A stretch of 64,000 bases of DNA, taken from the IMG/VR virus record IMGVR_UViG_3300027860_000004, positions 32,001-96,000 of that record; one strand, given 5' to 3'. The position numbers and the translations under genes were made by a program. Position 1 is the stretch's first letter. Each line of letters begins with the position of its first letter. Shown one piece after another: positions 46,336-64,000 of the stretch. This stretch comes from a virus (Duplodnaviria; Caudoviricetes). The notes beneath the pieces are model-generated. The model made no database searches. It was given only the letters and a program-made list of their open reading frames with translations, and was not told the DNA's origin.

Positions 46336-46355
46336 TAATAATTTCTTAAAAGATT

Positions 46356-48340: not shown

Positions 48341-48346
48341 GTGCTT

Positions 48347-49015: not shown

Positions 49016-49046
49016 GTTCTAATTATATCGAATTAGAAGGGTTATG

Positions 49047-49193: not shown

Positions 49194-49229
49194 GTCCTGA
49201 TTATACAGAACAGAAGGGGTTATGTCAAA

Positions 49230-49297
49230 TACATTAAAAAGGGAATACCTCGCATTCTCACTTCCTTCGCCCTACGGCGGGAAGGGGACCAACCTTC
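49230..49297 (-). ncRNA. candidate ~70-nt small RNA
   Basis: consensus promoter 49304-49332, no start codon at +1, three hairpins then U5. Confidence 0.55.
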
Positions 49298-49328
49298 CCG
49301 CTTATTATAGAGTTAAAGGGTCGTTTTG

Positions 49329-49937: not shown

Positions 49938-49974
49938 AACCTAATTATACATATTAGGTGGAGTTATTGCAAAT

Positions 49975-50295
49975 GAGGTTCCCCCAAAGTGACCAACCTC
50001 GGGAGAACCTCTTTGCGCCTAATCAATACACTTGAAGAGAGGTTTTGCTTTTCTTTCGTTTTTTCTTTCGTTAGTGTCTAACCTTGTCGGATTCGGCGCG
50101 CAGTTCGCCTATCTCATACATTCAAGGTTTAAGACTCTAGGTGATTCGCTTTCTCCTTTCTTTTGGAGGAGACTCGACAAGGGCCAAGGTTACTCAGGGG
50201 AGGTGAACGTATCCCGCTAGTTCCTTGTCTCTTTCAAACCCTTGTCGATATACGTCGTAGGTGTATTCCTACGTTCCGCTTTCTCCTACCCTTTA
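49975..50295 (-). ncRNA. candidate structured RNA in a ~320-nt gap without a convincing ORF
   Basis: nested inverted repeats 50167-50172/50282-50287, 50174-50183/50239-50248, 50256-50261/50268-50273. Confidence 0.45.
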
Positions 50296-50298
50296 AGT

Positions 50299-50568
50299 TT
50301 AATGCTTTTCGGGAGTTATGTCAAATGTCGAAGCGTAATACTTCTTTCCGACCGTATACGTTTCATAGGCGAGGCCATCGAAGTAATCGGCCAAGGAACA
50401 GAATCCTAGCCCGAAGTCTACAAGTAGCCAAAGGTCCGACTCCATGAAGTAAAGGCCCATACATTCGCAAATATCGCGCACGTACACTTCTCCGGTGAAG
50501 AGGAGACGGAGCGCATTGTTGATGAGAAGGAAGGTGATAACTTTGAAGAGGTCGCAGTAAAGTTTCAT
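50299..50568 (-). CDS. hypothetical protein (start moved to MKLYC)
   Basis: TTGACA-17-TATGCT-7-ATG. Confidence 0.7.
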   Translation of the reverse strand: MKLYCDLFKVITFLLINNALRLLFTGEVYVRDICECMGLYFMESDLWLLVDFGLGFCSLADYFDGLAYETYTVGKKYYASTFDITPEKH

Positions 50569-50611
50569 CTTCGTTAGCATACACCTTTCAATTTATTATG
50601 TCAAATGCCTT

Positions 50612-50776
50612 TTAGTCGGCAACCTTTACGCGAGCGTTGCGACGATGGTTCTTGTATTTGCCTTTCCCGCGCTTCTTATTGTAGGGGGAGTGCCAATCTT
50701 CGTGATACATCGTTCCGCGCTTGGTTTTGCGCGAGACTTCCAATTCGTAACGGAGGTTTGCTTCTCGAACATCCAT
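50612..50776 (-). CDS. 54-aa basic protein (not in ORF track)
   Basis: TTGCAT-17-TATACT-6-ATG; MDVREANL..NKKRGKGKYKNHRR. Confidence 0.75.
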   Translation of the reverse strand: MDVREANLRYELEVSRKTKRGTMYHEDWHSPYNKKRGKGKYKNHRRNARVKVAD

Positions 50777-50863
50777 GCGTTAAGTATAAACCTTCTTTTT
50801 AGTTAATGCAAACCAAGAGGAGGGGGTTCTATTTATTATAGTGCAAGAAAAGAGAAAGGACCC

Positions 50864-51175
50864 CTACCCTCGGGGGTCCGCTATTTCTCCCTTTTGGATG
50901 AGGTAGTCCGTCATTAGGTCCCCCGTAGACTTGAAGGGCGGAACATATGTCCGGTATGCTTCTCGACCCTCTTCCATCCAAGCGTCATAGCCATCTTGGT
51001 CGAGGATTGCATCGCATCGCATACAGGAGAGGAAACGGCCCTCATCGGTGGCATCATCACGCTTAATCGGTTTCTTCGGGTTGCCATACTCGAACTTTTC
51101 CATCGCGCAATCGACGCAGAGGCGTCTCTCGGATTGGTCGCTGTTGACTCGGTAGCCAACGATATCGTTTTCCAT
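50864..51175 (-). CDS. Zn-finger-like protein
   Basis: CVDC..CMRC; leaderless promoter. Confidence 0.75.
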   Translation of the reverse strand: MENDIVGYRVNSDQSERRLCVDCAMEKFEYGNPKKPIKRDDATDEGRFLSCMRCDAILDQDGYDAWMEEGREAYRTYVPPFKSTGDLMTDYLIQKGEIADPRG

Positions 51176-51211
51176 GTCCTAACTATACACCTAACTTTTG
51201 GTTATTGCAAG

Positions 51212-51463
51212 TTACCAATCGAATTTAGTGCAAACGGGGCCGCATTTTTCGCGACATTCTCCAGAAGCATAGTGGTGGCGAATATGTTCCGACCGTTTCG
51301 CTTCTCGTTGGGCCTCGCGTTGACGACGAACCTTCTCTGCTTGCGGGTCATAGGTCCGACCGAATCGGTTCACCGGGAGGGCACCGTTGGCGAGTTCATC
51401 ACACCGGAGGCATCCTTCAACCTTCTTACCGAAGTTCGGGCCGTGATTGTGTTGCGTTCCCAT
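51212..51463 (-). CDS. Cys/His-rich small protein
   Basis: H.H..CLRC..H..C..C..C; leaderless promoter. Confidence 0.75.
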   Translation of the reverse strand: MGTQHNHGPNFGKKVEGCLRCDELANGALPVNRFGRTYDPQAEKVRRQREAQREAKRSEHIRHHYASGECREKCGPVCTKFDW

Positions 51464-51489
51464 AACCCTATATTACATTTAATTAGGAG

Positions 51490-51765
51490 TTATGTCAAGG
51501 GATTTAGAAGTGCGAGAAGCCTTCTCAATTCCTTGATTTGTTCTTCTTTTGCTTCGATAGCCTTTTCCAGGGCCTTCTCGAACGCTAGGATGGCCTCTTC
51601 TCCATCGGTGTAGAAGTCTTTGCGCGCGACGGAGTAGACTGTTCCGCAGGCAATTCTCCGACCATTATCGCGAACCTGTGAAACAGTAACTTCCCGAAGG
51701 TAAGGAATACCTTCGTGGTTACTGTCGATAATGAAACCTTCGGTTCCTTTGCGAATATCTTCCAT
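51490..51765 (-). CDS. hypothetical protein
   Basis: leaderless promoter; ends TTG-ACA-TAA in the next -35. Confidence 0.75.
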   Translation of the reverse strand: MEDIRKGTEGFIIDSNHEGIPYLREVTVSQVRDNGRRIACGTVYSVARKDFYTDGEEAILAFEKALEKAIEAKEEQIKELRRLLALLNPLT

Positions 51766-51840
51766 CCTTTATATTTTAATTTAATCCCACAGTTATGTCA
51801 AGGAATAAGCCTATGATAAGTAGAAAGCAAAGAATGGAAT

Positions 51841-51873
51841 AGAGGAGGGCTTGAAAAGCGCCCTCCTCTTTTT
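51841..51873. terminator. terminator hairpin
   Basis: AGAGGAGGGC-N9-GCCCTCCTCT. Confidence 0.75.
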
Positions 51874-51875
51874 GG

Positions 51876-52055
51876 TTAATCACCTTCGGTTCCCGTTGCT
51901 TGCAGAAACCGTTCCCGGTTGAAACGGGGGTTCGTTATCGCCAACGAATCGGCGAAGGCAAGGGCCGCAGAACGTCGAGCGGAACGGAGACTTGCCGAAT
52001 GGGAAGGCATCCCTTTGATGGTGTCGGCAATCAGTTGAAAGTCTTTCTTCGTCAT
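51876..52055 (-). CDS. 59-aa conserved phage protein (not in ORF track)
   Basis: MTKKDFQLIA..NPRFNRERFL motif that I recognise from small phage proteins; TTGACA-17-TATAGT-6-ATG. Confidence 0.8.
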   Translation of the reverse strand: MTKKDFQLIADTIKGMPSHSASLRSARRSAALAFADSLAITNPRFNRERFLQATGTEGD

Positions 52056-52094
52056 GTGCTTACTATAAACCTATAACGAAGTTTTGTCAAAGAC

Positions 52095-52493
52095 TTACTT
52101 TCTCCGCTTGTTGTGATTTCCCCATCCCACAGTTTTCCAAGAATGAGGGAAAATTTCTTCAATGAACATAGCGACCTTAACAGGTATACCATACGAACGG
52201 TAGAGAGACTCCACTATGAGGGTTTGAAAGGTATCATGCCTTCCCCCTTCTCTTCCGTGATATACGTGGTCGATATAGTGCCCTAATTCGTGCAAGAGGG
52301 CCGCAGTATGTTCTGTCGTGGAACCATTTTTGCGGAAGTGTAGATAAATGATTTTGCTACGGGAAAAGTACCTTCCCGTATCTTTGTGGGCATCACGAAG
52401 CGAAGCAACTATGACCCGAGGAGCGGGTATGCCATAATCTTTACAGACTATGTTTGCATATTCTTGTGCCCATGTGGTCAAAGAAATGTTCAC
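52095..52493 (-). CDS. HExxH zincin-like metallopeptidase domain protein
   Basis: LLHELGH..H..H; GTG start 6 nt after TATACT. Confidence 0.7.
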   Translation of the reverse strand: MNISLTTWAQEYANIVCKDYGIPAPRVIVASLRDAHKDTGRYFSRSKIIYLHFRKNGSTTEHTAALLHELGHYIDHVYHGREGGRHDTFQTLIVESLYRSYGIPVKVAMFIEEIFPHSWKTVGWGNHNKRRK

Positions 52494-52601
52494 TTGATAA
52501 GTATAACCTTTTTTAAGTAGTTATGTCAAAGGCTTGTTCTCTTTAATTTATTATAGAGTAAAAGAAAGAGAGGCTCCCAGGGCAAGAACCTCCTCTTCGC
52601 T

Positions 52602-52859
52602 TTACTTTTTCTTGCCTTTCTTGGGTTCCATGTTGCGTTGACCCTTGGAGGCACGGATTTGTGCCCGCGTCATCTTCTTACGCTTGCGGGGTTGCTTGTC
52701 CACGGGGAGGGCCACAGGTGCCAGGATGGACAAACCCTGTTCCTCGGCGCGTTTATGCCCTTCCAGGACCCATTCGATATTGACCGGAACGGTGTTCGGA
52801 TTTTGCGAGAAGTTCTTCGCAGCGAAGGGGGCGAAGGTGGTCGTCATTTGCTGTTCCAT
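52602..52859 (-). CDS. protein with a highly basic C-terminal tail
   Basis: leaderless promoter. Confidence 0.7.
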   Translation of the reverse strand: MEQQMTTTFAPFAAKNFSQNPNTVPVNIEWVLEGHKRAEEQGLSILAPVALPVDKQPRKRKKMTRAQIRASKGQRNMEPKKGKKK

Positions 52860-52868
52860 GAATTAAGT

Positions 52869-53042
52869 TTATACCTTCTCGGAAGTTTTTGCAAGCGAAC
52901 CTTTGTTTTTATAGGCCGTTGTCCACTTGTGCCACTTGGTTCCAAAGTGTATCCCCATATGGTAGGAGACAACTCCACGATTTTGTTTCAACGCATGAGC
53001 ATAGCAGAAACGGTAAAGGCGTTGCTTCTGAAACTCTTTCAC
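52869..53042 (-). CDS. 57-aa basic protein (not in ORF track)
   Basis: TTGCTT-17-TAGAGT-6-GTG. Confidence 0.55.
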   Translation of the reverse strand: MKEFQKQRLYRFCYAHALKQNRGVVSYHMGIHFGTKWHKWTTAYKNKGSLAKTSEKV

Positions 53043-53139
53043 CTTCTTACTCTATCATAAACTGAAAGATAAAGCAAATATAGTTTTAAGATATTATAGC
53101 ATTAAAGGAAGAAAAGAACCCCCGGAGGGGGTCTAGTTG

Positions 53140-53166
53140 TTAGCCGAAAAGTTTGTCAAGTTTCAT
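53140..53166 (-). CDS. 8-codon minigene MKLDKLFG
   Basis: TTGCAA-17-TATAAT-6-ATG, then stop and terminator hairpin 53116-53133. Confidence 0.5.
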   Translation of the reverse strand: MKLDKLFG

Positions 53167-53201
53167 AACCTGATTATACCTTTTTGTTGATGTTATTGCA
53201 A

Positions 53202-53288
53202 ATGAGAGGAGTTTTCAATTAACGGGAAGAAAACTCTTAACAACTCCCGGCCTTTTCTGTGTCCCATTCGACCACGGGGGCCAACCTT
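53202..53288 (-). ncRNA. candidate ~90-nt structured RNA
   Basis: TTGACA-17-TATACT (53295-53323), no start codon at +1, GAGUUUUC/GAAAACUC stem. Confidence 0.5.
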
Positions 53289-53303
53289 AATTTAAGTATA
53301 AAA

Positions 53304-53483
53304 CTATTTGGTAGTTTTGTCAAACTTCCAGGTTGGCATGACTTCTTCGCGAGCCTGTTCTAGGCACAGGATGCACGTATATTCGTCCGCAACGATGCGA
53401 ACCGTATCCCGAGGGCGAAAGTCTGTTACCTTCGCACCACAACGAATTGATTCTGTTTTCTTGTCGAAAAGGTGGTTTAGCAT
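53304..53483 (-). CDS. small protein (H..CG..CxxC)
   Basis: ATG 53483 overlaps the upstream stop region. Confidence 0.55.
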   Translation of the reverse strand: MLNHLFDKKTESIRCGAKVTDFRPRDTVRIVADEYTCILCLEQAREEVMPTWKFDKTTK

Positions 53484-53752
53484 GAAAGTGCGAGAAGCCT
53501 TTCTTTCCAATCCGAGGAAAGTTTATCCCCTTCTGCTTTTTCTTGAAGAAGTTCGTACAGTTCGGGATAGGTAACATAATCCCGAGTATCACCTTCATCG
53601 GAGCAGAGAACCTCTACTGATTCACCTGCAACCGAATGAATCATGGGATTCGGTCCCATAAGAATTGAAACTTCCTTCCCATTCTCGAAAGAGATTACCG
53701 CATGACGTACACCACGCGAGGTCAAGAAGTGTGGTTTGATTTCAACTCTCAT
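53477..53752 (-). CDS. hypothetical protein
   Basis: TTGCAT-17-TATAAT-6-ATG. Confidence 0.75.
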   Translation of the reverse strand: MRVEIKPHFLTSRGVRHAVISFENGKEVSILMGPNPMIHSVAGESVEVLCSDEGDTRDYVTYPELYELLQEKAEGDKLSSDWKERLLALSC

Positions 53753-53838
53753 GCACTAATTATATCTTAAATTGAAAGATAATGCAAGAAGAAAAGAAGA
53801 AGCCTTGGGATGCTTGATTCCAAGGCTTTTCTAATATG

Positions 53839-54102
53839 TTATCCGTTATATTCGGAGAAACAACGCCCCTCGTCTAGTGCGACTTGATAGCGTTCGATGG
53901 ATTCGATACAACTTTCTAATTGTAGACGCGCCATCAGTAGGTCGCGATGAATCCCGCGATTATAGGATTTTTCGATGTTGACTTTATCAATAGTATCACA
54001 GGAATCATATCGCGCATGATACTCTTGAAGTTTGTTCTTCATCGCTTCTAATGAAGTGATTACATCAGAAGTGTTAAAGTTAGAAACCTTCGATTTAGCC
54101 AA
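53839..54102 (-). CDS. helical hypothetical protein (leadered exception)
   Basis: TTG start with AAGGAG SD; promoter 54160-54188. Confidence 0.65.
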   Translation of the reverse strand: MAKSKVSNFNTSDVITSLEAMKNKLQEYHARYDSCDTIDKVNIEKSYNRGIHRDLLMARLQLESCIESIERYQVALDEGRCFSEYNG

Positions 54103-54230
54103 AATTTTCTCCTTAGAAGAGTAAGCCCTAGAAGGGCAAAATTAGTTTTTACAAACCAAAACATATCAAATTACCAAAGTTATGTCAAATGTAGGTTGTT
54201 CTATATATAATAGTGTTGAAAATAAGAAGA

Positions 54231-54449
54231 AGGAGAGGTTAATTACTCCTCTCCTACTTTCCGCAAGGCGTCCCTTACTTGCCCGTTTTACATTCAGGTG
54301 GTGCCATACCTACACCATTCCGACAGGTGTTGTGGTTCTAAGTTTTTTAGTCCCTGGAAGTCAAACCCTAGACTTAAAAGCCTCCAGCGGGATTGTTTCC
54401 GTATCATCGCTTTTGTATCACGGTAAGGACGAACAATCAATTTCCTTAC
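54231..54449 (-). ncRNA. candidate ~200-nt structured transcript, or RBS-sequestered 48-aa ORF
   Basis: TTGACA-17-TATACT (54456-54484), several hairpins, terminator 54231-54255. Confidence 0.4.
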
Positions 54450-54549
54450 AACCAAAGTATATCAAAGCATTGAAGTTATGTCAAATGGAGTTTTATTCTA
54501 TGTATAATATACTTGAAAAGAGGAAGGGGAACCGGAGTTCCCCATTCTT

Positions 54550-54834
54550 CTACTTAATCCCGAGGCGGCGTTTGATTTCCGCTTTAACGAGGCGGGCTTG
54601 TTCGCCCTTGTAGGTGGTGGCGTTGGAGAGGAAATACATTCCAATGGACCGACCGGAGTCCGCACCATAGGCATCCTCGAATGAGGCCATATCGGACATG
54701 GCCTCTAAGTAGGGAACCGCACCGAAGTAGATTTTGGGCTTCCAGGACTTGCGAACGATATACGCAAGTTCGTTGACCGTCTTGCTTTTGAGTTCTTCCG
54801 CCGAAACGACGTTGTTGTTGTTGCTGATTTCCAT
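54550..54834 (-). CDS. conserved phage hypothetical protein
   Basis: W..YFGAVPYL.AM..YG.DS..YFLSNA..GE.AR.VK.E motif; leaderless promoter. Confidence 0.8.
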   Translation of the reverse strand: MEISNNNNVVSAEELKSKTVNELAYIVRKSWKPKIYFGAVPYLEAMSDMASFEDAYGADSGRSIGMYFLSNATTYKGEQARLVKAEIKRRLGIK

Positions 54835-54908
54835 AAACCTATTATACCTTTCGATAGAAGTTATTGCAAGAAAAAGAGCCTATCAGATTTCCGATAGACT
54901 CTCCAGAC

Positions 54909-55070
54909 TTAATCCTCTGTTTCGATTTCAAACATATCATTTCCTAGATAACGCACAGGCGTATCCGAAATGATATTGGCGACAATTTCCAAACCTTTTC
55001 CAGACGCCTCTCTAAGGGTTTCGGTTAATTGATTCAAAAGGTCTTGAAAAGAAATAACTTCTTTTGCCAT
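54909..55070 (-). CDS. 53-aa protein MAKEVISFQDLL... (not in ORF track)
   Basis: fills an intergenic gap; resembles 59772-60002. Confidence 0.55.
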   Translation of the reverse strand: MAKEVISFQDLLNQLTETLREASGKGLEIVANIISDTPVRYLGNDMFEIETED

Positions 55071-55120
55071 GTTTATATCATTCTCTCTTTCTTGAAGAAT
55101 CCCTTTAGACTTGTGAAAAT

Positions 55121-55378
55121 TTAATAATCTTCCGCTCGCCGCGCATCGGTTTCGTCTTGGTTGACGCCACTTGCAATAGTTCGACCAGAATCTTCGTCGT
55201 TGAACGTATCGACTTCGGTTCCATCCGGTAATTCGATATATTCACGAACGAGGCATTCATCATCAACGTCAACATCGACTGTTTCGATATTACTCACGTT
55301 GAGGGTAGAAGGAAAGAAGTCGCAGGAGGAGCGCACTTCGGTGCCACCATCCCATACCGAAACGTATGTTGCTTTCAT
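55121..55378 (-). CDS. acidic protein (start moved to MKATYVSVWDGG)
   Basis: GGAGA SD; second cistron. Confidence 0.7.
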   Translation of the reverse strand: MKATYVSVWDGGTEVRSSCDFFPSTLNVSNIETVDVDVDDECLVREYIELPDGTEVDTFNDEDSGRTIASGVNQDETDARRAEDY

Positions 55379-55382
55379 GTTT

Positions 55383-55583
55383 TTATTCTCCGAATCTATC
55401 GGGAACGATTTCCCACTTGCCGACTTTGTTTCCGTTGCTATCCAAGATATTCTCTTGGTCCCCGACGTATTGAGTGCTTTCATCGGAGGAATAACCCCGG
55501 AAAGAATTGGCGATAGCCGTCTTGACTTCACCGAAGGTTTGCATCGCATCGTTGTCGAGATTGATTTCGAGCGTCATCTTCAT
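55383..55583 (-). CDS. small phage protein
   Basis: I.LDNDA..I.D.NGNKVG.W; leaderless promoter. Confidence 0.75.
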   Translation of the reverse strand: MKMTLEINLDNDAMQTFGEVKTAIANSFRGYSSDESTQYVGDQENILDSNGNKVGKWEIVPDRFGE

Positions 55584-55620
55584 GCTTTAAGTTTAACAAC
55601 TTTCGGCAGTTATTGCAAAC

Positions 55621-55851
55621 CTAATGAACAATAGGAAAATGAATCGCCGGAACCCACGTTAATACCCACAGAACAAGCCAACAGGGGTAAACGAATGGGC
55701 AGAAAATACCGAATATCGCGGCGACGTACCAAGGAGCCCAAACTCCAAAAACCCAGAAGAGAATAAACTCTGCCAGGAGACAAGAAACGAGGTATATCAC
55801 CGAAAGGAATAATAATTGTATACCATAGAAAAACTTAATAAATTCATCCAT
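55621..55851 (-). CDS. small membrane protein
   Basis: very hydrophobic; TTGCAG-17-TAGAAT-6-ATG. Confidence 0.7.
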   Translation of the reverse strand: MDEFIKFFYGIQLLFLSVIYLVSCLLAEFILFWVFGVWAPWYVAAIFGIFCPFVYPCWLVLWVLTWVPAIHFPIVH

Positions 55852-55966
55852 ACTGTTATTCTACAACTTTGGGGAGGATTCTGCAAGGGTTCTGATTATT
55901 ATAGTTTAATAAAAAGAAAGGCAGGCTTTTTCTCCTTAGCCTGTCTCTCTTTTTTTGAGGAGGGTT

Positions 55967-56284
55967 TCAGTATTGAATCCGAACAGCCCCGCCGATGGTC
56001 AACTCTTTCCCTTGAACCGGATTCATCGCTTCCCGAACGAGGGAGAGGAGTTCCGGGAAGGAAGCGACCTTGGCCCCGTATTGGGTGTTAAGCATCCAAG
56101 TGCCGGGATGGCTTTTGGTCACGTTGTATAGTGCCAAAGCACTTTGTTTGTGAAGGGCGATGATTGCGTCATCTGATTGGAGGATGAAGTCGATATCCTC
56201 TTCTTTCGAGGGATAGATGACGAAGTTTCGCACCTTGCGGGCACCAGGGAGTTTGAAGTCAACGCTTGGAATGATGTTCTTCAT
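55967..56284 (-). CDS. hypothetical protein
   Basis: TTGACA-17-TATACT-6-ATG. Confidence 0.75.
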   Translation of the reverse strand: MKNIIPSVDFKLPGARKVRNFVIYPSKEEDIDFILQSDDAIIALHKQSALALYNVTKSHPGTWMLNTQYGAKVASFPELLSLVREAMNPVQGKELTIGGAVRIQY

Positions 56285-56319
56285 GTCCTAAGTATAAACT
56301 AATAACGAAGATTTGTCAA

Positions 56320-56544
56320 CTAATAGTCTTCTTCTTCGTCCTCGTTATCCTCCTCTAGGTTTACGTCGTCCATAACATCTTCGGTCGAATAGCCCAAGAC
56401 GTAAGCCTCTGGAAGAATTTCTTTCCCATTCCAAACTTCTACCTTATCAGAAATAAGGTGATTGAAGTAAAGGTGTTTAACATCTACTACTACTTCATCG
56501 GGAACGCTAACATTGACCCAGGTGACAAAGGTTAAAGTTTTCAT
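56320..56544 (-). CDS. acidic-tailed protein (start moved to MKTLTF)
   Basis: TTGCAA-17-TATGAT-6-ATG. Confidence 0.75.
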   Translation of the reverse strand: MKTLTFVTWVNVSVPDEVVVDVKHLYFNHLISDKVEVWNGKEILPEAYVLGYSTEDVMDDVNLEEDNEDEEEDY

Positions 56545-56649
56545 GTGCTTATCATACACCTTTCAGAAAGTTATTGCAAATAGGGTTATTCAATTTATTA
56601 TACACCAAAAGAGAGAAGAGAGAGCCGGAGCCCTCTACTTCAATCTTCC

Positions 56650-57072
56650 TTACACTTCCTTGACTTTGTACCCGAAGTTATTGAACACCTTAAGCACGTT
56701 CTCGGCGGTGCCGAGTCCGGGATTGCTATAATCACGTTGGCGGTTGTAAAGGGTTTGAGCCATAACGAGACTGATTTTGTTACGCGAAACCGTGAAGATG
56801 TAACCTTCGGTTTCGACAGCCTTCTTCGTTTCGGTCAAACCCATGCTGGTCAATTCGCGAAGGAATTTGATAGCCCCGATTTTATCGTAATCCCCATAAG
56901 GGCCGATAATGATAAACTTCAACGAAAGCGGGTCTTGCTTGCCTTCGATACGCAATTCGAGCAAACCCCGAAGGGCCATGTCGGTCACAATCGAAACGAA
57001 GGAGGTGCCATCCACCTTGTTATGGGGGATGAGGATTTCTTGGTCGCCTTGCTTCAAAACAATGTTCATCAT
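56650..57072 (-). CDS. protein with a ribosomal L7/L12 C-terminal-like domain
   Basis: DKIGAIKFLRELTSMGLTETKKAVE..AENVLKVFNNFGYKV. Confidence 0.7.
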   Translation of the reverse strand: MMNIVLKQGDQEILIPHNKVDGTSFVSIVTDMALRGLLELRIEGKQDPLSLKFIIIGPYGDYDKIGAIKFLRELTSMGLTETKKAVETEGYIFTVSRNKISLVMAQTLYNRQRDYSNPGLGTAENVLKVFNNFGYKVKEV

Positions 57073-57117
57073 GTTTTTATTCTACCTTTTTCTTGAAGTT
57101 ATTGCAAGAAAGAATTA

Positions 57118-57303
57118 TTAGGGAACGTAGAAAACAGGTGAACCATAATCAGGATTGTATTCCTGAACAGTTTTCCATTCGATGAGATTTTGTTCTTCCA
57201 AAGCCCGAATGGCTTGAAGTGCAGCAACGCGAGTCACACCCGGCAAGAAATGAATGACCGCCCCAACTTGCCGAGGTTCTTTGTTCTCATTGTTATTGTT
57301 CAT
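57118..57303 (-). CDS. small phage protein
   Basis: ends EYNPDYGSPVFYVP; leaderless promoter. Confidence 0.7.
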   Translation of the reverse strand: MNNNNENKEPRQVGAVIHFLPGVTRVAALQAIRALEEQNLIEWKTVQEYNPDYGSPVFYVP

Positions 57304-57391
57304 ACTTCTATTATCAACCTTTAGGGTAGTTTTGTCAAAAATTATTCAATTTATTATAGCATAAGAAAAGAAAGAGGGCCAAAGCCCCCTT

Positions 57392-57595
57392 TTAGTCCGG
57401 GTCGTACTCTTCCCCAGGCGCTTCGTCGTGCATATAGCGCATGACTTCAACATCTTCGACCTCCGCGAATTTGATTCGAGGAGTCTGCTTATATGCGGCG
57501 TCCCGAATCTCATCAATATCGGGGTTCGCATTATCCAGATTAACTTGATATTTGCGAACCTCCGTAACAGTTTCTGTTAGAACGAACAGGGGCAT
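57392..57595 (-). CDS. small acidic protein (start MPLFVL)
   Basis: AGAGGAGG SD. Confidence 0.65.
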   Translation of the reverse strand: MPLFVLTETVTEVRKYQVNLDNANPDIDEIRDAAYKQTPRIKFAEVEDVEVMRYMHDEAPGEEYDPD

Positions 57596-57777
57596 CCGTA
57601 GTCCTCCTCTTCTTCCCATTCTTCATAGTCGATATTCTCGTCAAAGAAGTCCTCTTCTTCGACAAATTCGCCATTCGCTTCGGAAGCGAGGCAGTTTTCC
57701 TCGAAACGGATGGCATCCCCGAAGGGCATCGAGTCGTAGGGGTCGTAAGATTCGTAACCGCTGTAATCTTCATCCAT
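57577..57777 (-). CDS. extremely acidic 66-aa protein, DNA-mimic candidate
   Basis: D/E- and aromatic-rich; TTGCAG-17-TATAAT-6-ATG. Confidence 0.7.
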   Translation of the reverse strand: MDEDYSGYESYDPYDSMPFGDAIRFEENCLASEANGEFVEEEDFFDENIDYEEWEEEEDYGCPCSF

Positions 57778-57799
57778 AAACTAATTATAGACCTTCTCT

Positions 57800-57982
57800 T
57801 TAGTTACTGCAAGCGGAGAGAGGATACCAACGGCCACCATCTTTCCCTCCGCTTGCATGATAGCGAGGCAACTGCGGGACGCAGAAGATTTCCCCTTCCC
57901 GCTTCTTGGTAACGTAGCAAGGAACGTCTTTCAAGCGACCACGACGAGGTGTAGCGGCCTGAAGAAGGTTGGCATCTTTCAA
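57800..57982 (-). CDS. small hypothetical protein
   Basis: overlaps the upstream stop; ends in the next promoter. Confidence 0.5.
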   Translation of the reverse strand: MKDANLLQAATPRRGRLKDVPCYVTKKREGEIFCVPQLPRYHASGGKDGGRWYPLSACSN

Positions 57983-58230
57983 CTAATCCACACCTTGTAG
58001 GCATCGGCAAGGTCGTAAAGATAGTCGAGCGAATCATTAAAGTCATCTACCGACCCATTTACAGATGACTTGTAAAAATCGTTTGATAAGTCCGTAGTGT
58101 CAAGAACATTGAAAGGTGAATTTACTCGAAGCCTTTCCATGATTTGATTTGCAGCGGCCTTGACTGAATCTTCATCTTCAGAAGTGTCAAGAAGGTCTTT
58201 GATTTGGAATTGAGACAGCCATTTACCCAT
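57979..58230 (-). CDS. acidic protein (start MGKW)
   Basis: GGAGA SD; DF...LD.LYDLAD...VWI. Confidence 0.7.
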   Translation of the reverse strand: MGKWLSQFQIKDLLDTSEDEDSVKAAANQIMERLRVNSPFNVLDTTDLSNDFYKSSVNGSVDDFNDSLDYLYDLADAYKVWIS

Positions 58231-58231
58231 A

Positions 58232-58408
58232 TTATTTCTCCAGCAAAGCGACAAGGAACCCATGTTGATAGATGAAGGGTAAATTATCGAAGAGAGCCTT
58301 CTGGTTCTTCGTTGCCAGGGAGAGAGCAAACTCCTTCGCCTTGTTATAGGCGCTCAACTCCACAAAGGAGGAGGTCAAAAGTTCTTTCGCTTCATCTTTC
58401 GTCATCAT
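58232..58408 (-). CDS. 58-aa protein MMTKDEAKELL... (not in ORF track)
   Basis: TTGACA-17-TATACT-6-ATG. Confidence 0.7.
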   Translation of the reverse strand: MMTKDEAKELLTSSFVELSAYNKAKEFALSLATKNQKALFDNLPFIYQHGFLVALLEK

Positions 58409-58434
58409 GCTCTAAGTATAAACTTATTGCGGAG

Positions 58435-58650
58435 TTATGTCAAAGGAAGCGGAATTGTAGACTCGAACCAAACTTCTTTGTCGTAATCATTATACGTGAT
58501 TTTAACATGGCTGTATTCTACGGCATGGCGATGAATAAGATTTTTCGCAAGATTCAATGCGCCTTGCTTTGAGTCCCGAGTCCAGAATTGGACTTGTGCG
58601 GGATATTCACGTAGGGTTGCAATGATGACAAATGGTTCGGTATACTTCAT
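58435..58650 (-). CDS. hypothetical protein
   Basis: TGGACA-17-TATATT-6-ATG; ends TTG-ACA-TAA. Confidence 0.7.
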   Translation of the reverse strand: MKYTEPFVIIATLREYPAQVQFWTRDSKQGALNLAKNLIHRHAVEYSHVKITYNDYDKEVWFESTIPLPLT

Positions 58651-58665
58651 GCTATGAATATAAAC

Positions 58666-58935
58666 CTATTCAGGAGTTTTGTCCAACAATGGGAGGAAAG
58701 AAACGATATTCTTTCTTAATTTATCATAAACAACTCGAACAGTCTGACCCTGCCATTCGAGCGTATGAATAGTGACCCGATTTGATTGGGTCACAACATT
58801 TTGACTTCGACCGGACATAATATGACGCTTTAATTCTATCATATTTTGATGGTTGAAGTCAATTCCGTAACGCTCCAATGCCCTCCGCTTGGCATGTTTA
58901 CGTTGGCACTTCCCTTTGCTAACTCGCTTTCCCAT
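58666..58935 (-). CDS. basic protein, possible RelE/DUF4258-like fold
   Basis: HAKRRALERY..VVYDK..IVSF. Confidence 0.5.
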   Translation of the reverse strand: MGKRVSKGKCQRKHAKRRALERYGIDFNHQNMIELKRHIMSGRSQNVVTQSNRVTIHTLEWQGQTVRVVYDKLRKNIVSFLPLLDKTPE

Positions 58936-58957
58936 TATTGTTGTTCCCTTAAATAAT

Positions 58958-59045
58958 TGGTGGGGAAGGTGGGACTCGAACCCACATGAGATTTCTCCCG
59001 TCGCGTTTTAAGCGCGATGCTTCTGACCAATTTAGCCACTTCCCC
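58958..59045 (-). tRNA. trnL: tRNA-Leu(UAA)
   Basis: GGGGAAG/CTTCCCC acceptor, TCGCG-CTTAAAA-CGCGA anticodon arm, long variable arm, GTGGG-TTCGAGT-CCCAC T arm, encoded CCA. Confidence 0.95.
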
Positions 59046-59448
59046 GAATAGATGGATGACTATAATATCCTCCGCATTTTCGAGAACAATAATTTTCTTT
59101 TGTTACTTTATTTTTTTGTCTGTCTTGGCGCTCACGTTGACTAACTTCTGCTTGAAACTCTTTTCCGCAAGGGCAAGTATATGTTTTATATTTTCTTTGC
59201 CTTCCGTGGTCAACCCAAACGGATTTTCTTCTATTTTCTATTCCGCTCAAAACTTGCAAGTTCGACAGTTCATTGTTTCTTATGTTTCCATCCTTGTGGT
59301 CAACTTCTTCCCAATCCTCAAGTTTCCTTCCTAATGCTTCTTCCATGAGGTAACGAGGATAAGAAATAGTTATCAGGGATTTATCGTCTAATTGCTTGAC
59401 AATTCTGCTTCTGCCGTCCTTGGCAGTATATGGTCCGTATATCTTCAT
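59032..59448 (-). CDS. HNH homing-endonuclease-like protein
   Basis: RY.ME..LGR.L...EEVDHKDG...NN..SNLQV, C-terminal CPCGK..YCSRKC; AAGAGG SD. Confidence 0.85.
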   Translation of the reverse strand: MKIYGPYTAKDGRSRIVKQLDDKSLITISYPRYLMEEALGRKLEDWEEVDHKDGNIRNNELSNLQVLSGIENRRKSVWVDHGRQRKYKTYTCPCGKEFQAEVSQRERQDRQKNKVTKENYCSRKCGGYYSHPSIRGSG

Positions 59449-59485
59449 GGCTAACAACCTCTTTGTTAACCATTATATTAAAAAG

Positions 59486-59728
59486 TTATTTGGTTCGACC
59501 AGCAATAGCCTCTACATAATTTTCAAGGCAACGACGAGTATGATATTCTGGATTTTTGTTATTAAATTGACTGTAGTAATTCAACAGCCCTTGCTTTTGA
59601 CTGTCACCTGGTTTAACTGTAACAGTAAACTCGTTAAACACAAATGAAACCGGATTGCCTAGCCGGTTTGCAAACTCGCGAGCATATTCAACTGCTCCGT
59701 TAATATGATGAATGCTGTTTATTGACAT
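59486..59728 (-). CDS. hypothetical protein
   Basis: TTGCAA-17-TAGAAT-6-ATG. Confidence 0.75.
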   Translation of the reverse strand: MSINSIHHINGAVEYAREFANRLGNPVSFVFNEFTVTVKPGDSQKQGLLNYYSQFNNKNPEYHTRRCLENYVEAIAGRTK

Positions 59729-59771
59729 ACTCCTATTCTATCAACTTTCTTTAGTTATTGCAAAAAAATGA

Positions 59772-60002
59772 CTAAAGAGGACCAGAACCTAAAAAGTAGT
59801 CCTCTTCCTCTTCTTCATCTTCTTCTACGGCGAAGGTGGCACTCAGTCCTGGATGACTTGTGCTAATAGTGTTATAGCGTTCTTCGGTAAGCCGAACCTC
59901 GCGTTCATAGATAGCAGAAGCGATGCGCGCAAGGCTACGTCCGTCGCTATGTTCGATACGTTGCACCAAGTCACGAATGAGGTCCTCGCGTTCAATCTTC
60001 AT
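59772..60002 (-). CDS. acidic-tailed protein
   Basis: TTGCAA-17-TAAAAT-6-ATG. Confidence 0.75.
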   Translation of the reverse strand: MKIEREDLIRDLVQRIEHSDGRSLARIASAIYEREVRLTEERYNTISTSHPGLSATFAVEEDEEEEEDYFLGSGPL

Positions 60003-60087
60003 GACCTTATTTTATCAACTAATTGGAGTTCTTGCAACTCATACTATTTATTATATAACTAAAAGAAAAAAGGAGGACGAACCTCCT

Positions 60088-60384
60088 TTAGACAGGGAAT
60101 CGAGGAAGAGGTTTTTCGGTTTGAGGGCTTGCTTTGAGAAACTCTACGTGCCCCTTTAGGTCCTCTGCTGCCTTCAAGTAATCACCACGCTTATACTTGC
60201 GGCCGGTGTATTCTGAAGCCATCTTGAGCATTTGAACAGGTCCAACGCCTCGGGTCGGAATCATCTTCAACTTTGCATAGCCGATGAGACTTTGTGCCAG
60301 GATAGCGGCCCGGAAAATATCCACATCCCCTTTGGCAAGGACTCGGCCGTTGTGGGTGCGTTCGGCAAATGATTGATTATCCAT
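60088..60384 (-). CDS. phage hypothetical protein
   Basis: TG.KYKRG.Y..A..DL; TTGCAA-17-TAATAT-6-ATG. Confidence 0.75.
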   Translation of the reverse strand: MDNQSFAERTHNGRVLAKGDVDIFRAAILAQSLIGYAKLKMIPTRGVGPVQMLKMASEYTGRKYKRGDYLKAAEDLKGHVEFLKASPQTEKPLPRFPV

Positions 60385-60449
60385 GACTTTATATTATCAA
60401 CTTTAAGAAGATATTGCAAGTCATTTTATTATTTATTATATCATTATTC

Positions 60450-60672
60450 CACAACGAGGACCGGCGCTAGGCTCGGCCCTCCTTGGGATAACGCGCTAGG
60501 TCCCGGATTTGAACCGGAAACGCCACCTATTTGCTTAGGTCCGAACCTAGATGAAGTAAGAGGATGCTCGCACAACTTTTATATGCTGCCGGTCAAGAGA
60601 GTCTTATCTCTCACGCTTTGTTTAGGCGGTCCTACTTGTCCACCTACCTAGAACCTTAGTTTGTCACTCTGT
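60450..60672 (-). ncRNA. tRNA/tmRNA-like structured RNA
   Basis: TTGACA-17-TATAAT (60679-60707), CUAGGU/ACCUAG closing stem, UCCGG-UUCAAAU-CCGGG T arm. Confidence 0.6.
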
Positions 60673-60713
60673 GATTAGATTATATCTTCTTGAAGAAGTT
60701 TTGTCAAAACCCT

Positions 60714-60902
60714 TTAGTTAGAAGGGTCAACAGATTGGAGTCTAAAGGACCGTGCGGCTTCACGCATTTCGGCAAGCATATTCTCTGCTTCACGATAGTC
60801 GCTAGGTCCTGGCGCATCCTTTGTATGGTCGCCAAGGATAACTTCAAGGGCAGCAATACGGTTCGGCGTGACCTTTACTGTTGCTTGGTTAGAAGTATCC
60901 AT
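60714..60902 (-). CDS. small hypothetical protein
   Basis: second cistron. Confidence 0.55.
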   Translation of the reverse strand: MDTSNQATVKVTPNRIAALEVILGDHTKDAPGPSDYREAENMLAEMREAARSFRLQSVDPSN

Positions 60903-60907
60903 TATTT

Positions 60908-61327
60908 TTAGATGGTTGCCTTGAAAGAAACCAGGTTGTAAGAGTAGGGCGAGTTCTTGACCAACTCTTCATATTGCGGACGAGTAAGGATACCCGCAGC
61001 AAGAAACTTTTTGGCGACCTCTACATCGGCCGTAAGTTTCTCGGGAACCTCCACAAAGTTAATCTTGAAGTTCCCCCGCTTGTTACGGAAGGTGCCGGAA
61101 ATGAAGGTTTCTTTGTTCTCACCCAGGGCCTTGCGAATGGCCTTAATCTTGGGCTTGAGGTCTTTCTCCAACTTCGTTTCCGCAGCGGATTTCAGTTCGG
61201 AGGTAAGGATATAGTCCCGAAGAACGGCAACGATTTCGGTTTGCGTATCTTCGGTAAGTGCGGTGACACCTTCTGCGGTCACGGGCACGATGACTGTTTG
61301 GGCGTTTTCGAGAAGTGTGTTGCTCAT
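60908..61327 (-). CDS. hypothetical protein
   Basis: TTGCAA-17-TATAGT-6-ATG. Confidence 0.8.
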   Translation of the reverse strand: MSNTLLENAQTVIVPVTAEGVTALTEDTQTEIVAVLRDYILTSELKSAAETKLEKDLKPKIKAIRKALGENKETFISGTFRNKRGNFKINFVEVPEKLTADVEVAKKFLAAGILTRPQYEELVKNSPYSYNLVSFKATI

Positions 61328-61397
61328 GTATAAACTATAGACCTTTCAGAGAGTTATTGCAAGCAGCGGTTGTACCCGCTTTGCCTACGGTGAAGCG

Positions 61398-61426
61398 AGT
61401 ATAACATATAAAAAACAAAAAGTCAA
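61398..61426 (-). promoter_or_regulatory. extra tandem promoter without an adjacent start codon
   Basis: TTGACT-17-TATACT followed by an AGCGG/CCGCT hairpin. Confidence 0.6.
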
Positions 61427-61473
61427 GTGCATTCTATTTATTATAGCGTTGAATAAAGAAAAAGGAGGATTTT

Positions 61474-61686
61474 TTATTTCCCCTTCTTCTCCTGTTGAAG
61501 AAAATAGTTAATGACTTCTGCTACCCGATACTTATGATTGACCCAGGTAATAGTCTCTCTGAAGATAATTTGATACCCTGCGGGGTATTCTACGATGACA
61601 AGGTTTGCATTATCAGTAGGTAAACCTGCTTTAGCAAACTCTTGCTTGATATAGTTTTTTGAGAATTTTACTTGACTAGGATTCAT
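61474..61686 (-). CDS. hypothetical protein (start MNPSQV)
   Basis: overlaps the upstream stop. Confidence 0.55.
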   Translation of the reverse strand: MNPSQVKFSKNYIKQEFAKAGLPTDNANLVIVEYPAGYQIIFRETITWVNHKYRVAEVINYFLQQEKKGK

Positions 61687-61909
61687 TGACAGTAGAAGGT
61701 AGAACGATTCGACCATCCCCCACGGCTTCGACCAGCGTGGCAAACATTTCGTTAGATGCCTTCTGTCGGTCAAGGTGACGCTGCCACGATTCCTGAAAGG
61801 CTTTGCTTTCTGCATCGCGATAACCTTTTCGATACTCAGCATCGAGCATTTCATCGAGTTCCGATTGCTTCATCATAACAATCGGGTTTTTGTCTGTGTG
61901 AATAAGCAT
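61676..61909 (-). CDS. hypothetical protein
   Basis: TTGACT-17-TATAAA-6-ATG. Confidence 0.7.
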   Translation of the reverse strand: MLIHTDKNPIVMMKQSELDEMLDAEYRKGYRDAESKAFQESWQRHLDRQKASNEMFATLVEAVGDGRIVLPSTVNES

Positions 61910-61935
61910 ATTCTATTTATAGACCTTTCAAGGAG

Positions 61936-62304
61936 TTAAGTCAAATCTCCATCATGCCCGACAGTAAACATGACAATCTCAAACATATCACGGGCTTTGA
62001 TTGCTTTAATTGCTTCGCGTTCTCCTGTGTCGAACCAAATGCAAACCGGAAAAGTTTGTGGAACCTCCATCAAACAATCAAGTAATTCCCCAACGGTCAA
62101 GGCTTGGCTTTCATCGGCCGGTTCTTCATCATAGAGGGGAGGTTCAATCGACTGAGCATTGATTGTAACCATTGACAAAGACGGCGAACCCTCTACAGTT
62201 TCATAAGAAACATTTGTAAAGAAAGAACCATCATCCACCCGGCATTCAAACTCCGGGTTAGTGTAGAGATTGCGAAGCGTTTCTCGCAGTTCGCTAACTT
62301 TCAT
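61936..62304 (-). CDS. acidic protein (start MKVSEL)
   Basis: TAATG coupling; internal repeat MKVSEL/LTVGEL. Confidence 0.7.
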   Translation of the reverse strand: MKVSELRETLRNLYTNPEFECRVDDGSFFTNVSYETVEGSPSLSMVTINAQSIEPPLYDEEPADESQALTVGELLDCLMEVPQTFPVCIWFDTGEREAIKAIKARDMFEIVMFTVGHDGDLT

Positions 62305-62495
62305 TAGCCTTGCAGAACCCCCAAGGTGCCGCAGCCCTTGCAAATATCATCCGGTTCTGGGGGATGACCAAAGTCCTCGAAAAACATTTCGATTGCTTCT
62401 GGGTCATAGTCAAGAGTGATTGTGTTAATCACTTGTCCCTGGTTTTCGCATCCCTTGGTTTCACAAACCACAGAGAAAGTCACTTCTTCTAGCAT
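62304..62495 (-). CDS. small Zn-ribbon-like acidic protein
   Basis: C...GC.N..CKGCG; TTGCAA-17-TAGAAT-6-ATG. Confidence 0.7.
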   Translation of the reverse strand: MLEEVTFSVVCETKGCENQGQVINTITLDYDPEAIEMFFEDFGHPPEPDDICKGCGTLGVLQG

Positions 62496-62521
62496 GACCT
62501 TATTCTATCAATCTTAAAGAG

Positions 62522-62713
62522 TTATTGCAAATAAGGAGGCGGAGTTAGTCCCCGCTTGTGAAGCAATCCCAATTCGTTTAGAACCGCAATAGCAGTAGCC
62601 TGCATCCGATACTCATTCCAATCCTTAAAATCAAGTCGATTCTGCGGGGTGCTATTGCGAATGGCTCTCGCAGTTCGTTCGATAAGGGCAACTTCTTCAT
62701 CGGTATAATCCAT
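62522..62713 (-). CDS. hypothetical protein
   Basis: TTGCAA-17-TATAAT-9-ATG; ends TTG-CAA-TAA. Confidence 0.7.
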   Translation of the reverse strand: MDYTDEEVALIERTARAIRNSTPQNRLDFKDWNEYRMQATAIAVLNELGLLHKRGLTPPPYLQ

Positions 62714-62798
62714 AGTCAAAACATTATATCAAGAATTAGAAGTTATTGCAAGGGTTGTTATTCAATTTATAATAGAGTAATAGTAAAAAAAGAGGCCC

Positions 62799-63293
62799 TT
62801 AGAAGGCCCCTGGGGTTAGTTGAGACTTCACAGGTGCATATACTACAACCTGTTCATTTCCGACCATTCCAAGGCGATTCTTGACCGCTTGGGATACATC
62901 TATGATTCGATGCGTCCATAGGTTTGGTCCTCTATCTTCTACTTTACAAGTAGCATACTTATGGGTCTTTACATTCTTGATAATGACCCGAGTATGAAGA
63001 GGGAAGTACCAGGAAGCGCACATATTTTTGTGGGTATCGAATATGATTCCTGAAGCAGTAGGCTTCCCTTGTGTATTGTCATCCCCCCAAGGGCATAGAT
63101 TGCGGTTTCCGGCGCATCCATACCAAGAGGCTTCACCGCGAGCCTGTTGACGAAAGTGATTGTTTTGCTGCCCATGATGAGCAGCAATTCGTCGCGTATG
63201 CTTTAGGTGAGATTGTTCACTTCGCGGATGTTCTGTGCATCCGAAGAGGGAGACTCCAATCAATATGATTGAAAGATAAACTCTTTTCGTCAT
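62799..63293 (-). CDS. RlpA-like double-psi beta-barrel lipoprotein (lytic-transglycosylase-like)
   Basis: lipobox-like LFGC, GEASWYG, TASG..FD, VEDRGP, RIIDVS. Confidence 0.85.
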   Translation of the reverse strand: MTKRVYLSIILIGVSLFGCTEHPRSEQSHLKHTRRIAAHHGQQNNHFRQQARGEASWYGCAGNRNLCPWGDDNTQGKPTASGIIFDTHKNMCASWYFPLHTRVIIKNVKTHKYATCKVEDRGPNLWTHRIIDVSQAVKNRLGMVGNEQVVVYAPVKSQLTPGAF

Positions 63294-63329
63294 GAATTAA
63301 GTTTATCATCTTCAATCAGTTAAATCAAA

Positions 63330-63485
63330 TTATTGCTGATATATTACTACTACGGGAGTATGTCCCGGAACAGGGTGATACTGAGAAAGACTTGCATCTT
63401 GCTTCAGCATTAACATAACACCCCAGAGAATGATAAGTCCGGTGACTCCACATTGAACTAGAATACCTGCAAGTTTTCTATTCAT
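63330..63485 (-). CDS. 51-aa single-TM protein (not in ORF track)
   Basis: MNRKLAGILVQCGVTGLIILWGVMLML...; abuts the upstream stop. Confidence 0.55.
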   Translation of the reverse strand: MNRKLAGILVQCGVTGLIILWGVMLMLKQDASLSQYHPVPGHTPVVVIYQQ

Positions 63486-63486
63486 G

Positions 63487-63687
63487 TCAAAAGCGCCCGT
63501 GATAATGCTTTTCCACTCGCGTAATCAACTTGACGCGCTGACCATCCTGGGTCATTTCTTTTTCTTGTTCGGACCAAGCAGGACGAGATTCACCAATGAT
63601 ACAATCCGTGCAACCGCAATCGCTTGGGTCAATATATTCGGTCGTTTCCTCAAAATAAAGGACCACACTTCTACGCTTATTATTCAT
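63487..63687 (-). CDS. small protein with CGCTDC motif
   Basis: AGAGGAGG SD before ATG 63687. Confidence 0.65.
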   Translation of the reverse strand: MNNKRRSVVLYFEETTEYIDPSDCGCTDCIIGESRPAWSEQEKEMTQDGQRVKLITRVEKHYHGRF

Positions 63688-63692
63688 GATTA

Positions 63693-63965
63693 TTAAACCT
63701 CCTCTTTTTCCAAAGATTTTTGAGATTGTAGCCATTTTTGATATTCGTGGTGACTATCATTAATGCCCCAATGACGTTTGAGGTCACGATAATTATGCCC
63801 TGTGCGAAAGCCTTGGTCAACTAATTGTTGTAAGATATTAGCGCGCATCTTACAAATGTCGCAATCAAGACCCCAATCACAAGAACTAAGTCCTACAAAT
63901 AAACTATCTGTAATGTGTGAGGCTTCTCGGTCGCTAAGATTTAATTGAATGTTCTTCTTTTCCAT
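63693..63965 (-). CDS. hypothetical protein
   Basis: TTGCAA-17-TATAAT-6-ATG. Confidence 0.75.
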   Translation of the reverse strand: MEKKNIQLNLSDREASHITDSLFVGLSSCDWGLDCDICKMRANILQQLVDQGFRTGHNYRDLKRHWGINDSHHEYQKWLQSQKSLEKEEV

Positions 63966-64000
63966 ACAAAGATTATATCGAAATCTTTTAGTTATTGCAA

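Follow-up and report, generated by a model that had tools for sequence, protein, structure and literature searches.

A perfect sigma-70 promoter with no start codon behind it raises the question of what it transcribes. Such a promoter is found on the minus strand of a 64,000-nucleotide (nt) stretch of phage DNA, here called the window, which comprises bases 32001-96000 of the 130,281-base IMG/VR virus record IMGVR_UViG_3300027860_000004 (Caudoviricetes), a linear sequence rated 78% complete. The element that it precedes has a core of 156 nt in which the ends and the elbow of a transfer RNA (tRNA) are kept, with about 107 unrelated bases in the place of the anticodon arm. The best explanation of this element is a separately transcribed RNA gene, derived from a tRNA, of a large uncultured phage, and we give odds of about one in two to its being a promoter-driven, RNase P-processed, non-decoding tRNA mimic. 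Positions within the element refer to the minus strand of the window throughout, and positions in the complete record are marked "genome".

The promoter fits the sigma-70 consensus at 12 of 12 positions (60707-60679), as the earlier note on this DNA had reported, and is the sole site of this quality between 57 and 64 kb. It is one of the 4 perfect sites in the window, where 14 sites have at most one mismatch versus 1.19 expected, most of these 14 sharing the extended form TTGACAWAAC. No ATG follows its -10 hexamer, i.e. there is no start codon at +1. Elsewhere in the early region (window 44000-64000, minus strand), ATG begins at the seventh nucleotide past the -10 hexamer in 11 of 27 distinct strong minus-strand sites, at the eighth in 2 and at the tenth in 1, and six weaker promoter-like sites have the same 7-base distance from -10 to the start of an open reading frame (ORF). 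This spacing points to leaderless mRNAs for the early-region genes and, since the ATG of neighbouring genes begins at the seventh nucleotide, the transcript of the element would start at A 60672. The surrounding non-coding gap (Table 1) is the largest in this tightly packed early stretch, other measured gaps being of 5, 28, 43 and 85 nt. ORFs within the gap are absent from a 15-billion protein collection, and no homologue of them was found. The promoter spacer (60685-60701) carries the palindrome CTTCTT-C-AAGAAG, which may be an operator. A related sequence, CTTCTTAAAG, occurs in the spacer of the next promoter-like site (60419-60391).

Three helices of a tRNA are recognisable behind this promoter. 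The acceptor stem consists of the pairs C-G, U-A, A-U, G-C, G-C and U-A. The T arm adjoining its 3' strand is canonical, with a 5-base-pair (bp) stem, G53-C61, and U54, U55, C56 and A58 in a loop of the form UUCRANN. The D arm, which the earlier note had undersold, is a proper one in the place expected for a tRNA, and carries A14, G18-G19 and A21. It can lengthen to a 7-bp hairpin, UAGGUGG/CCGCCUA, although the CCGCCUA strand (60629-60623) has two alternative partners, UAGGUGG at 60646-60640 or at 60529-60523. No anticodon arm (5-bp stem, 7-nt loop, U33 and a purine at 37) was found in the element, which therefore cannot decode: the sole loop with U33 and A37 (UUCGGAC) is closed by 4 of 5 pairs and lies some 75 nt from the D arm. 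The acceptor pairing, the adjoining T arm, the two possible partners of CCGCCUA and the internal GAGAG/CUCUC and UAGGU/ACCUA hairpins had all been pointed out in the earlier note, along with a 156-nt core devoid of a standard anticodon arm, of an encoded CCA and of a G3:U70 pair, and this description holds in every respect. Internal repeats of 7-8 nt are near chance level by a rough estimate, and in a search for antisense targets the element shared no match as long as 12 nt with any other part of the genome.

The geometry of these helices is not random. A descriptor was composed that requires a 5-bp T stem with G53-C61 and a UUCRANN loop, at least 6 contiguous acceptor pairs within 320 nt, and a D stem placed 2 nt past the acceptor strand, with a loop beginning with A and containing GG. 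It was applied to the 130-kb genome and to 400 block shuffles of it. T arms number 10 in the real sequence against 0.51 expected per shuffled genome. Acceptor pairing alone is not significant, since a T arm with an acceptor partner of at least 6 bp is expected 0.41 times per shuffled genome. The T arm is significant, as is the correctly placed D arm, with 6 full frames observed against 0.005 expected per shuffled genome, a contrast somewhat inflated by the fact that the descriptor was composed after the element had been seen. Three of the six full frames are ordinary tRNAs; the other three are long, of 158 nt (the element), 114 nt and 182 nt.

Table 1. Features of the element and its promoter (window coordinates) and of related RNAs elsewhere in the record (genome coordinates).
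Feature	Position	Strand	Remarks
-35 hexamer TTGACA	60702-60707	-	read from the sequence; extended form TTGACAAAAC common to other early promoters
-10 hexamer TATAAT	60679-60684	-	17-nt spacer to -35
Non-coding gap, 329 nt	60385-60713		between a gene for 62 amino acids (aa; 60714-60902) and a 98-aa gene (60088-60384)
5' leader, 21 nt, putative	60652-60672	-	start placed by analogy with neighbouring genes
Acceptor 5' strand CUAGGU	60646-60651	-	pairs with ACCUAG 60501-60496
D arm GUGG-ACAAGUAGGA-CCGC	60626-60643	-	begins 2 nt (AG) past acceptor strand; pair probability 0.90-0.96
Insert, 107 nt	60519-60625	-	replaces anticodon and variable arms; from sequence and folding
Insert hairpin GAGAG-AUAAGA-CUCUC	60612-60597	-	probability 0.5-0.6; the one steady hairpin of the insert
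Insert hairpin UAGGU-UCGG-ACCUA	60549-60536	-	excludes ACCUA-AGCAAA-UAGGU hairpin
Insert hairpin ACCUA-AGCAAA-UAGGU	60540-60525	-	excludes UAGGU-UCGG-ACCUA hairpin
T arm UCCGG-UUCAAAU-CCGGG	60502-60518	-	directly 5' of acceptor 3' strand; pair probability 0.91-0.93
Acceptor 3' strand ACCUAG	60496-60501	-	followed by CGCG, no CCA
Trailer hairpin GAGGGCCG-(10 nt)-CGGUCCUC	60456-60481	-	no U tract
tRNA with 47-nt anticodon loop	genome 103081-103195	-	44.9 bits on Rfam model; encoded CCA; outside window
182-nt tRNA frame	genome 103853-104034	-	7-bp acceptor, D arm, T arm, insert of ~109 nt
61-nt mini RNA	genome ~121220-121280	+	behind TTGACAAAAC...TATACT promoter

The two other long frames, together with a much shorter RNA, are sister genes of the element in the same genome. 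In the first, 47 nt replace the 7-nt anticodon loop; its minimum-free-energy fold, a compact three-way junction with the anticodon stem lengthened to 8 bp and two additional hairpins, has z = -2.18, and according to ARAGORN with introns allowed (-i) it is Thr(UGU) carrying an insert of 40 nt, upon removal of which a canonical UGU loop is obtained. The 182-nt frame is read by the same program as Thr(AGU) with a 109-nt insert at canonical position 37/38, and is not called by Rfam; like the element, it has no CCA and ends in CCUAGCG. The 61-nt mini RNA combines a T arm, a tiny hairpin and ACCA with a 7-bp acceptor stem featuring G3:U70. Apart from a deleted interior, it matches the Rfam model of transfer-messenger RNA (tmRNA) over the whole length, at 26.5 bits (E = 3e-7), which is below the gathering score of 47. 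This match is the only one to that model in the genome, and the mini RNA may represent a stand-alone tmRNA-like acceptor domain. No similarity beyond that of shuffles was detected between the inserts of the three long frames, so that they form no common insert family. Because the tRNA with the 47-nt loop, the 182-nt frame and the mini RNA co-occur, the expanded tRNA shape looks like a genome-wide habit. A wider proposition, that the clade maintains expanded tRNAs with 40-110 bases added to the anticodon arm (three here, in addition to the 61-nt alanine-type mini RNA), whose inserts are either removed or kept, appears doubtful to us. Two observations on other tRNAs of this genome may be added. 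Default ARAGORN reports a tRNA-Ala(CGC) at genome 121508-121580 (plus strand) that has no CCA and no Rfam tRNA match at E<=1, and whose T arm is identical at 17 of 18 positions to that of the tRNA with the 47-nt loop. Conversely, Rfam tRNAs at genome 113999-114072, 114590-114665 and 114805-114877 are missed by default ARAGORN.

Is the element then a tRNA in the usual sense? Membership was taken to be a score of 29 bits, the gathering score of RF00005, or a call by default ARAGORN, and the element has neither. ARAGORN did not call it at default settings, with introns allowed or not, nor in its tmRNA search (-m), and none of the 4227 Rfam models matched it at gathering score, at E<=1 (27.5 kb searched) or at E<=10 (701 nt searched). 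It fits no described family: tRNA, tmRNA and the bacterial Y RNA YrlA each fail on at least one defining feature. Only ARAGORN run with -i200 -ps90 calls the element as a tRNA, assigning it the anticodon UCA, an insert of 66 nt at position 30/31 and a variable arm of 26 nt. We distrust this call, as the anticodon stem it proposes has a pair probability of 0.00 in both folds, and the same setting also yields several calls inside coding regions.

Taken literally, the relaxed call would make the element an intron-bearing decoding tRNA, 94 nt long and class-II-like, from which the 66-nt intervening sequence is cut out and the halves are sealed, possibly by the RNA ligase of the phage. The genome does contain a gene for such a ligase (PF09414), and the 44.9-bit sister gives its canonical loop after removal of 40 nt at the same kind of position. 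The frames of intron-containing pre-tRNAs of archaea and eukaryotes, and of bacterial tRNAs with group I introns, are likewise interrupted in the anticodon region. Yet in the element no credible anticodon stem is left after removal of the insert, and position 37 would be U. Group I introns are of about 200 nt or more, for which an insert of 66-107 nt is too short, and no intron or ribozyme family, including the group I core, matches in Rfam at E<=10. Neither the splicing endonuclease EndA (PF01974) nor RtcB was found in the 130-kb record, and the same holds for a CCA-adding enzyme, TROVE/Ro60 (PF05731) and SmpB, although the record is a genome fragment in which such absences weigh lightly. The dissimilarity of the three inserts also speaks against splicing, as does the fact that the standard code leaves the long ORFs of the window open, with no sign of UGA being read. 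A spliced, decoding tRNA is therefore improbable.

A reduced tmRNA or a YrlA-type Y RNA had been suggested in the earlier note as possible forms of the tRNA mimic. The tRNA-like domain of tmRNA resembles the element in its acceptor, its T arm and the large insert between its 5' and 3' parts; moreover, pairing of CCGCCUA with the distal UAGGUGG just ahead of the T arm would have the topology of tmRNA helix 2, and an internal 20-codon frame begins with GCA GCA. This frame ends in ...DLSK, unlike a degradation tag, and there is neither a G3:U70 pair nor a CCA. The local D hairpin, with its high pair probability, takes the same bases as the helix-2 reading, and tmRNA lacks a true D stem. The search with ARAGORN -m and the Rfam tmRNA model at E<=10 both found nothing in the element, and the only tmRNA-model match belongs to the separate 61-nt RNA. 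YrlA is also a non-coding RNA with mimicry of T and D arms, and some YrlA RNAs are RNase P substrates and receive CCA (PMC4201824). In the same account, a Ro-binding stem is formed by its 5' and 3' ends, its acceptor-like stem is closed into a hairpin and its genes adjoin Ro60 (PMC4201824), whereas the element ends at its acceptor, no TROVE gene is present in the record and no Rfam match was obtained. Kinship with either family is thus very improbable, and of the earlier proposal it is the promoter-driven non-coding RNA with a tRNA-like frame that stands as most likely.

Part of the structure could be accounted for in another way, by a phage attachment site or by a 3' fragment captured from a host tRNA gene, as the T arm and 3' acceptor strand of host tRNAs are frequently duplicated in attachment sites. 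The element has in addition a matching 5' acceptor strand and a D arm 150 nt upstream, and it lies behind a consensus promoter. The exact 23-mer comprising T arm and 3' strand was present in none of 185,579 species genomes scanned, and this explanation has hardly any likelihood.

Folding bears on whether the tRNA frame would form. Once processed to 160 nt, the RNA has a pair probability of 0.83 in the acceptor, of 0.90 in the D and of 0.93 in the T helix. Before processing, the acceptor stem has a competitor in the trailer, which is complementary to two internal sequences, CUAGGUUCGG (10 bp) and GACCGGC (7 bp). Because the acceptor 3' strand is transcribed ahead of the trailer, the tRNA frame might arise earlier than this trailer-paired fold. 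Leader and trailer can also pair with each other, lengthening the acceptor helix (13 nt, 77%), which might hinder RNase P.

Several features weigh against a functional tRNA mimic. In the full 223-nt transcript, the acceptor stem has a probability of only 0.01, and pairing of the trailer with the interior through the 10-bp and 7-bp helices is favoured at -73.6 kcal/mol versus -68.6 kcal/mol for the tRNA frame. The core is no more stable than shuffled sequences (z = -0.40; 65 of 200 shuffles as good), and its opposite strand has z = -0.80. The acceptor has 6 Watson-Crick pairs only, with a mismatch of U 60652 and C 60495 at pair 1-72; position 8 is A instead of U, and positions 15/48 are C/U. 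A CCA is wanting, although it is encoded in 6 of the 7 Rfam-called tRNAs of the genome and in the 61-nt mini RNA, and no U-tract terminator is found downstream. The guanine-cytosine (GC) content of the element, 0.49, is little above the 0.42-0.43 of its flanks. Default ARAGORN and Rfam at all three thresholds pass it over, and the evidence comes from a single sequence.

Some of these features would equally suit a decayed tRNA relic with a disrupted anticodon region, lying behind an early promoter by chance and transcribed only as the 5' untranslated stretch of the transcript of the 98-aa gene, or not at all. A8, the 6-bp acceptor, the missing CCA, the unexceptional stability of the middle, the lack of a terminator before the next gene and the silence of all tRNA models are in keeping with this view, and several other promoters of the region are likewise followed by short non-coding stretches. 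Against it, the acceptor, D and T helices, which decay should have worn down as well, are all intact and correctly spaced. Furthermore, the element has the best promoter of a 7-kb stretch, the 98-aa gene is served by a weaker promoter-like site of its own, its ATG lying at the seventh nucleotide past the -10, and the two further long frames suggest a maintained class. The clean match to a decayed ordinary tRNA that the earlier note had named as fatal to its reading was returned by neither Rfam nor default ARAGORN. A relic, which would be of little importance, is unlikely in our estimation but retains appreciable weight. A functional tRNA-derived RNA gene is most likely, given that the frame is intact, that no promoter in the stretch is better, that the gap is non-coding and that there are sister genes.

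Close counterparts of the element were sought among known systems and deposited sequences. RNAs C and D of phage T4 fold with tRNA-like ends. By description, these RNAs (species I and II) are comparable to the element as small, stable, non-decoding RNAs, longer than a tRNA, of a lytic phage with tRNAs. The element differs in having its own promoter, 1.5 kb from the nearest tRNA, whereas the T4 RNAs lie inside a co-transcribed cluster; they derive from the tRNA-region precursor, and their roles are given as unknown (PMC2330249, PMC3014915). A tRNA-like frame also processes or stabilises an attached RNA in tRNA scaffolds, mascRNA and the tRNA-like RNAs of gammaherpesviruses, but these systems are eukaryotic or engineered, and no phage counterpart turned up in the literature accessible to our searches. 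T4 RNAs C and D, YrlA and the tRNA-like domain of tmRNA are thus its closest analogues, and we file the element under tRNA mimics, as a member of no family. Likewise, no paper on phage tRNA genes with short non-group-I inserts turned up in the accessible literature, of which supplementary lists (e.g. PMC10690425) might hold some. Comparison of the locus by blastn, and of a 912-aa ORF by tblastn, with 50,697 deposited phage records gave nothing similar. Exact DNA patterns of the T arm with acceptor, of the D arm and of the neighbouring tRNA-Leu found no homologue in IMG/VR, JGI metagenomes and GTDB genomes. Searches of IMG/VR with single neighbour proteins and with the single portal sequence found no homologous locus, and neither did searches of JGI metagenomes and GTDB genomes with the aligned 139-aa neighbour. 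An alignment of the portal reached three IMG/VR fragments (12-45 kb, 60-62% identity), in which there is no tRNA.

The pathway by which a tRNA mimic might arise from this locus can be outlined. Host RNA polymerase would begin at ~60672 from the consensus early promoter, and the acceptor, D and T helices would form the tRNA corner and the acceptor/T stack during transcription. Host RNase P would then cut off the 21-nt leader, and a 3' nuclease and the host CCA-adding enzyme would complete the 3' end. The product would be a stable, non-decoding RNA of about 156-160 nt, in which ~107 nt replace the anticodon and variable arms. As a tRNA look-alike, it may engage tRNA-binding proteins, either processing and modifying enzymes or the tRNA-cutting defence nucleases of the host; alternatively, the tRNA frame may simply stabilise the inserted RNA. 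The phage RNA ligase and an AlkB-like gene are counted in favour of the tRNA mimic, since jumbo phages commonly combine tRNAs with RNA repair genes, according to a published account (PMC7824862).

Phage tRNAs are now regarded as weapons against host defences that cut tRNAs. A non-decoding RNA of tRNA shape would be a pure decoy or scaffold, and thus a different tactic. If the inserts of the expanded tRNAs were kept, these would be chargeable or processable non-decoding tRNAs soaking up host anticodon nucleases or other tRNA-directed defences. If they were removed by a protein-only cut-and-ligate process with the phage RNA ligase, this would be the first case, in a bacterial virus, of tRNA splicing that is not self-splicing. 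With three expanded frames, an RNA ligase, an AlkB-like gene and a mini tmRNA-like RNA, this one genome provides a concrete system for the question of whether such RNAs are spliced, repaired or only displayed by phages. Because standard tRNA finders miss the element, genes of this kind are probably under-counted in phage genomes.

Genes for a portal and a large terminase lie in the window, as do those for an RNA ligase, an AlkB-like oxygenase and an R2K ATP-grasp protein. A relative of the portal with 99% identity is found on a 274,834-base ENA contig, and others with 60-76% identity on contigs of up to 312 kb, and a relative of the 139-aa gene adjoining the element also lies on an ENA contig of 274,834 bases. 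The element therefore probably belongs to a jumbo-phage clade. Neighbour proteins of the element have 94-97% identical relatives on ENA/Logan contigs of 13,175 and 274,834 bases, and it is probable that an independent assembly likewise links the portal to the early region. Some portal relatives (P0014, P0022, P0031, P0034) are of 919-956 aa and contain intein or homing-endonuclease domains (PF14528, PF14890, PF05203) that are absent from the portal of this genome.

Base composition also varies along the genome. GC content rises from 0.30-0.33 to 0.41-0.49 across the early region (genome 80001-112000, or 48001-80000 in window numbering), and the low-GC and high-GC parts probably lie on one 274,834-base contig in the independent assembly. 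An argument for the element as a GC island was rejected, as the whole 80-112 kb part of the genome has 41-49% GC.

Several other loci deserve mention. At window 37286-41106 (plus strand), the AlkB-like 2OG-Fe(II) oxygenase, the R2K ATP-grasp protein and the RNA ligase, of family PF09414 with a PHA02142 OB domain, form a cluster that looks like an RNA repair or modification module. The motif CCUAGCGCC occurs three times against 0.2 expected, in the trailer of the element, in its 182-nt sister and in one coding region. Stretches without a start codon also lie behind other consensus promoters, at window 49235-49303 (minus strand) and downstream of the promoters at 53323, 54484, 54188 and 50324, and may be further small RNAs or long leaders. 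One of them would be a transcript of ~65 nt in which a 9-bp hairpin forms and whose end, CCCUUUUU, lies immediately ahead of the next promoter. Finally, an HNH endonuclease ORF (PF13392) at window 59032-59457 (minus strand) and the tRNA-Leu(UAA) gene at 58958-59045 on the same strand share 14 bases, at the 3' end of the former and the beginning of the latter.
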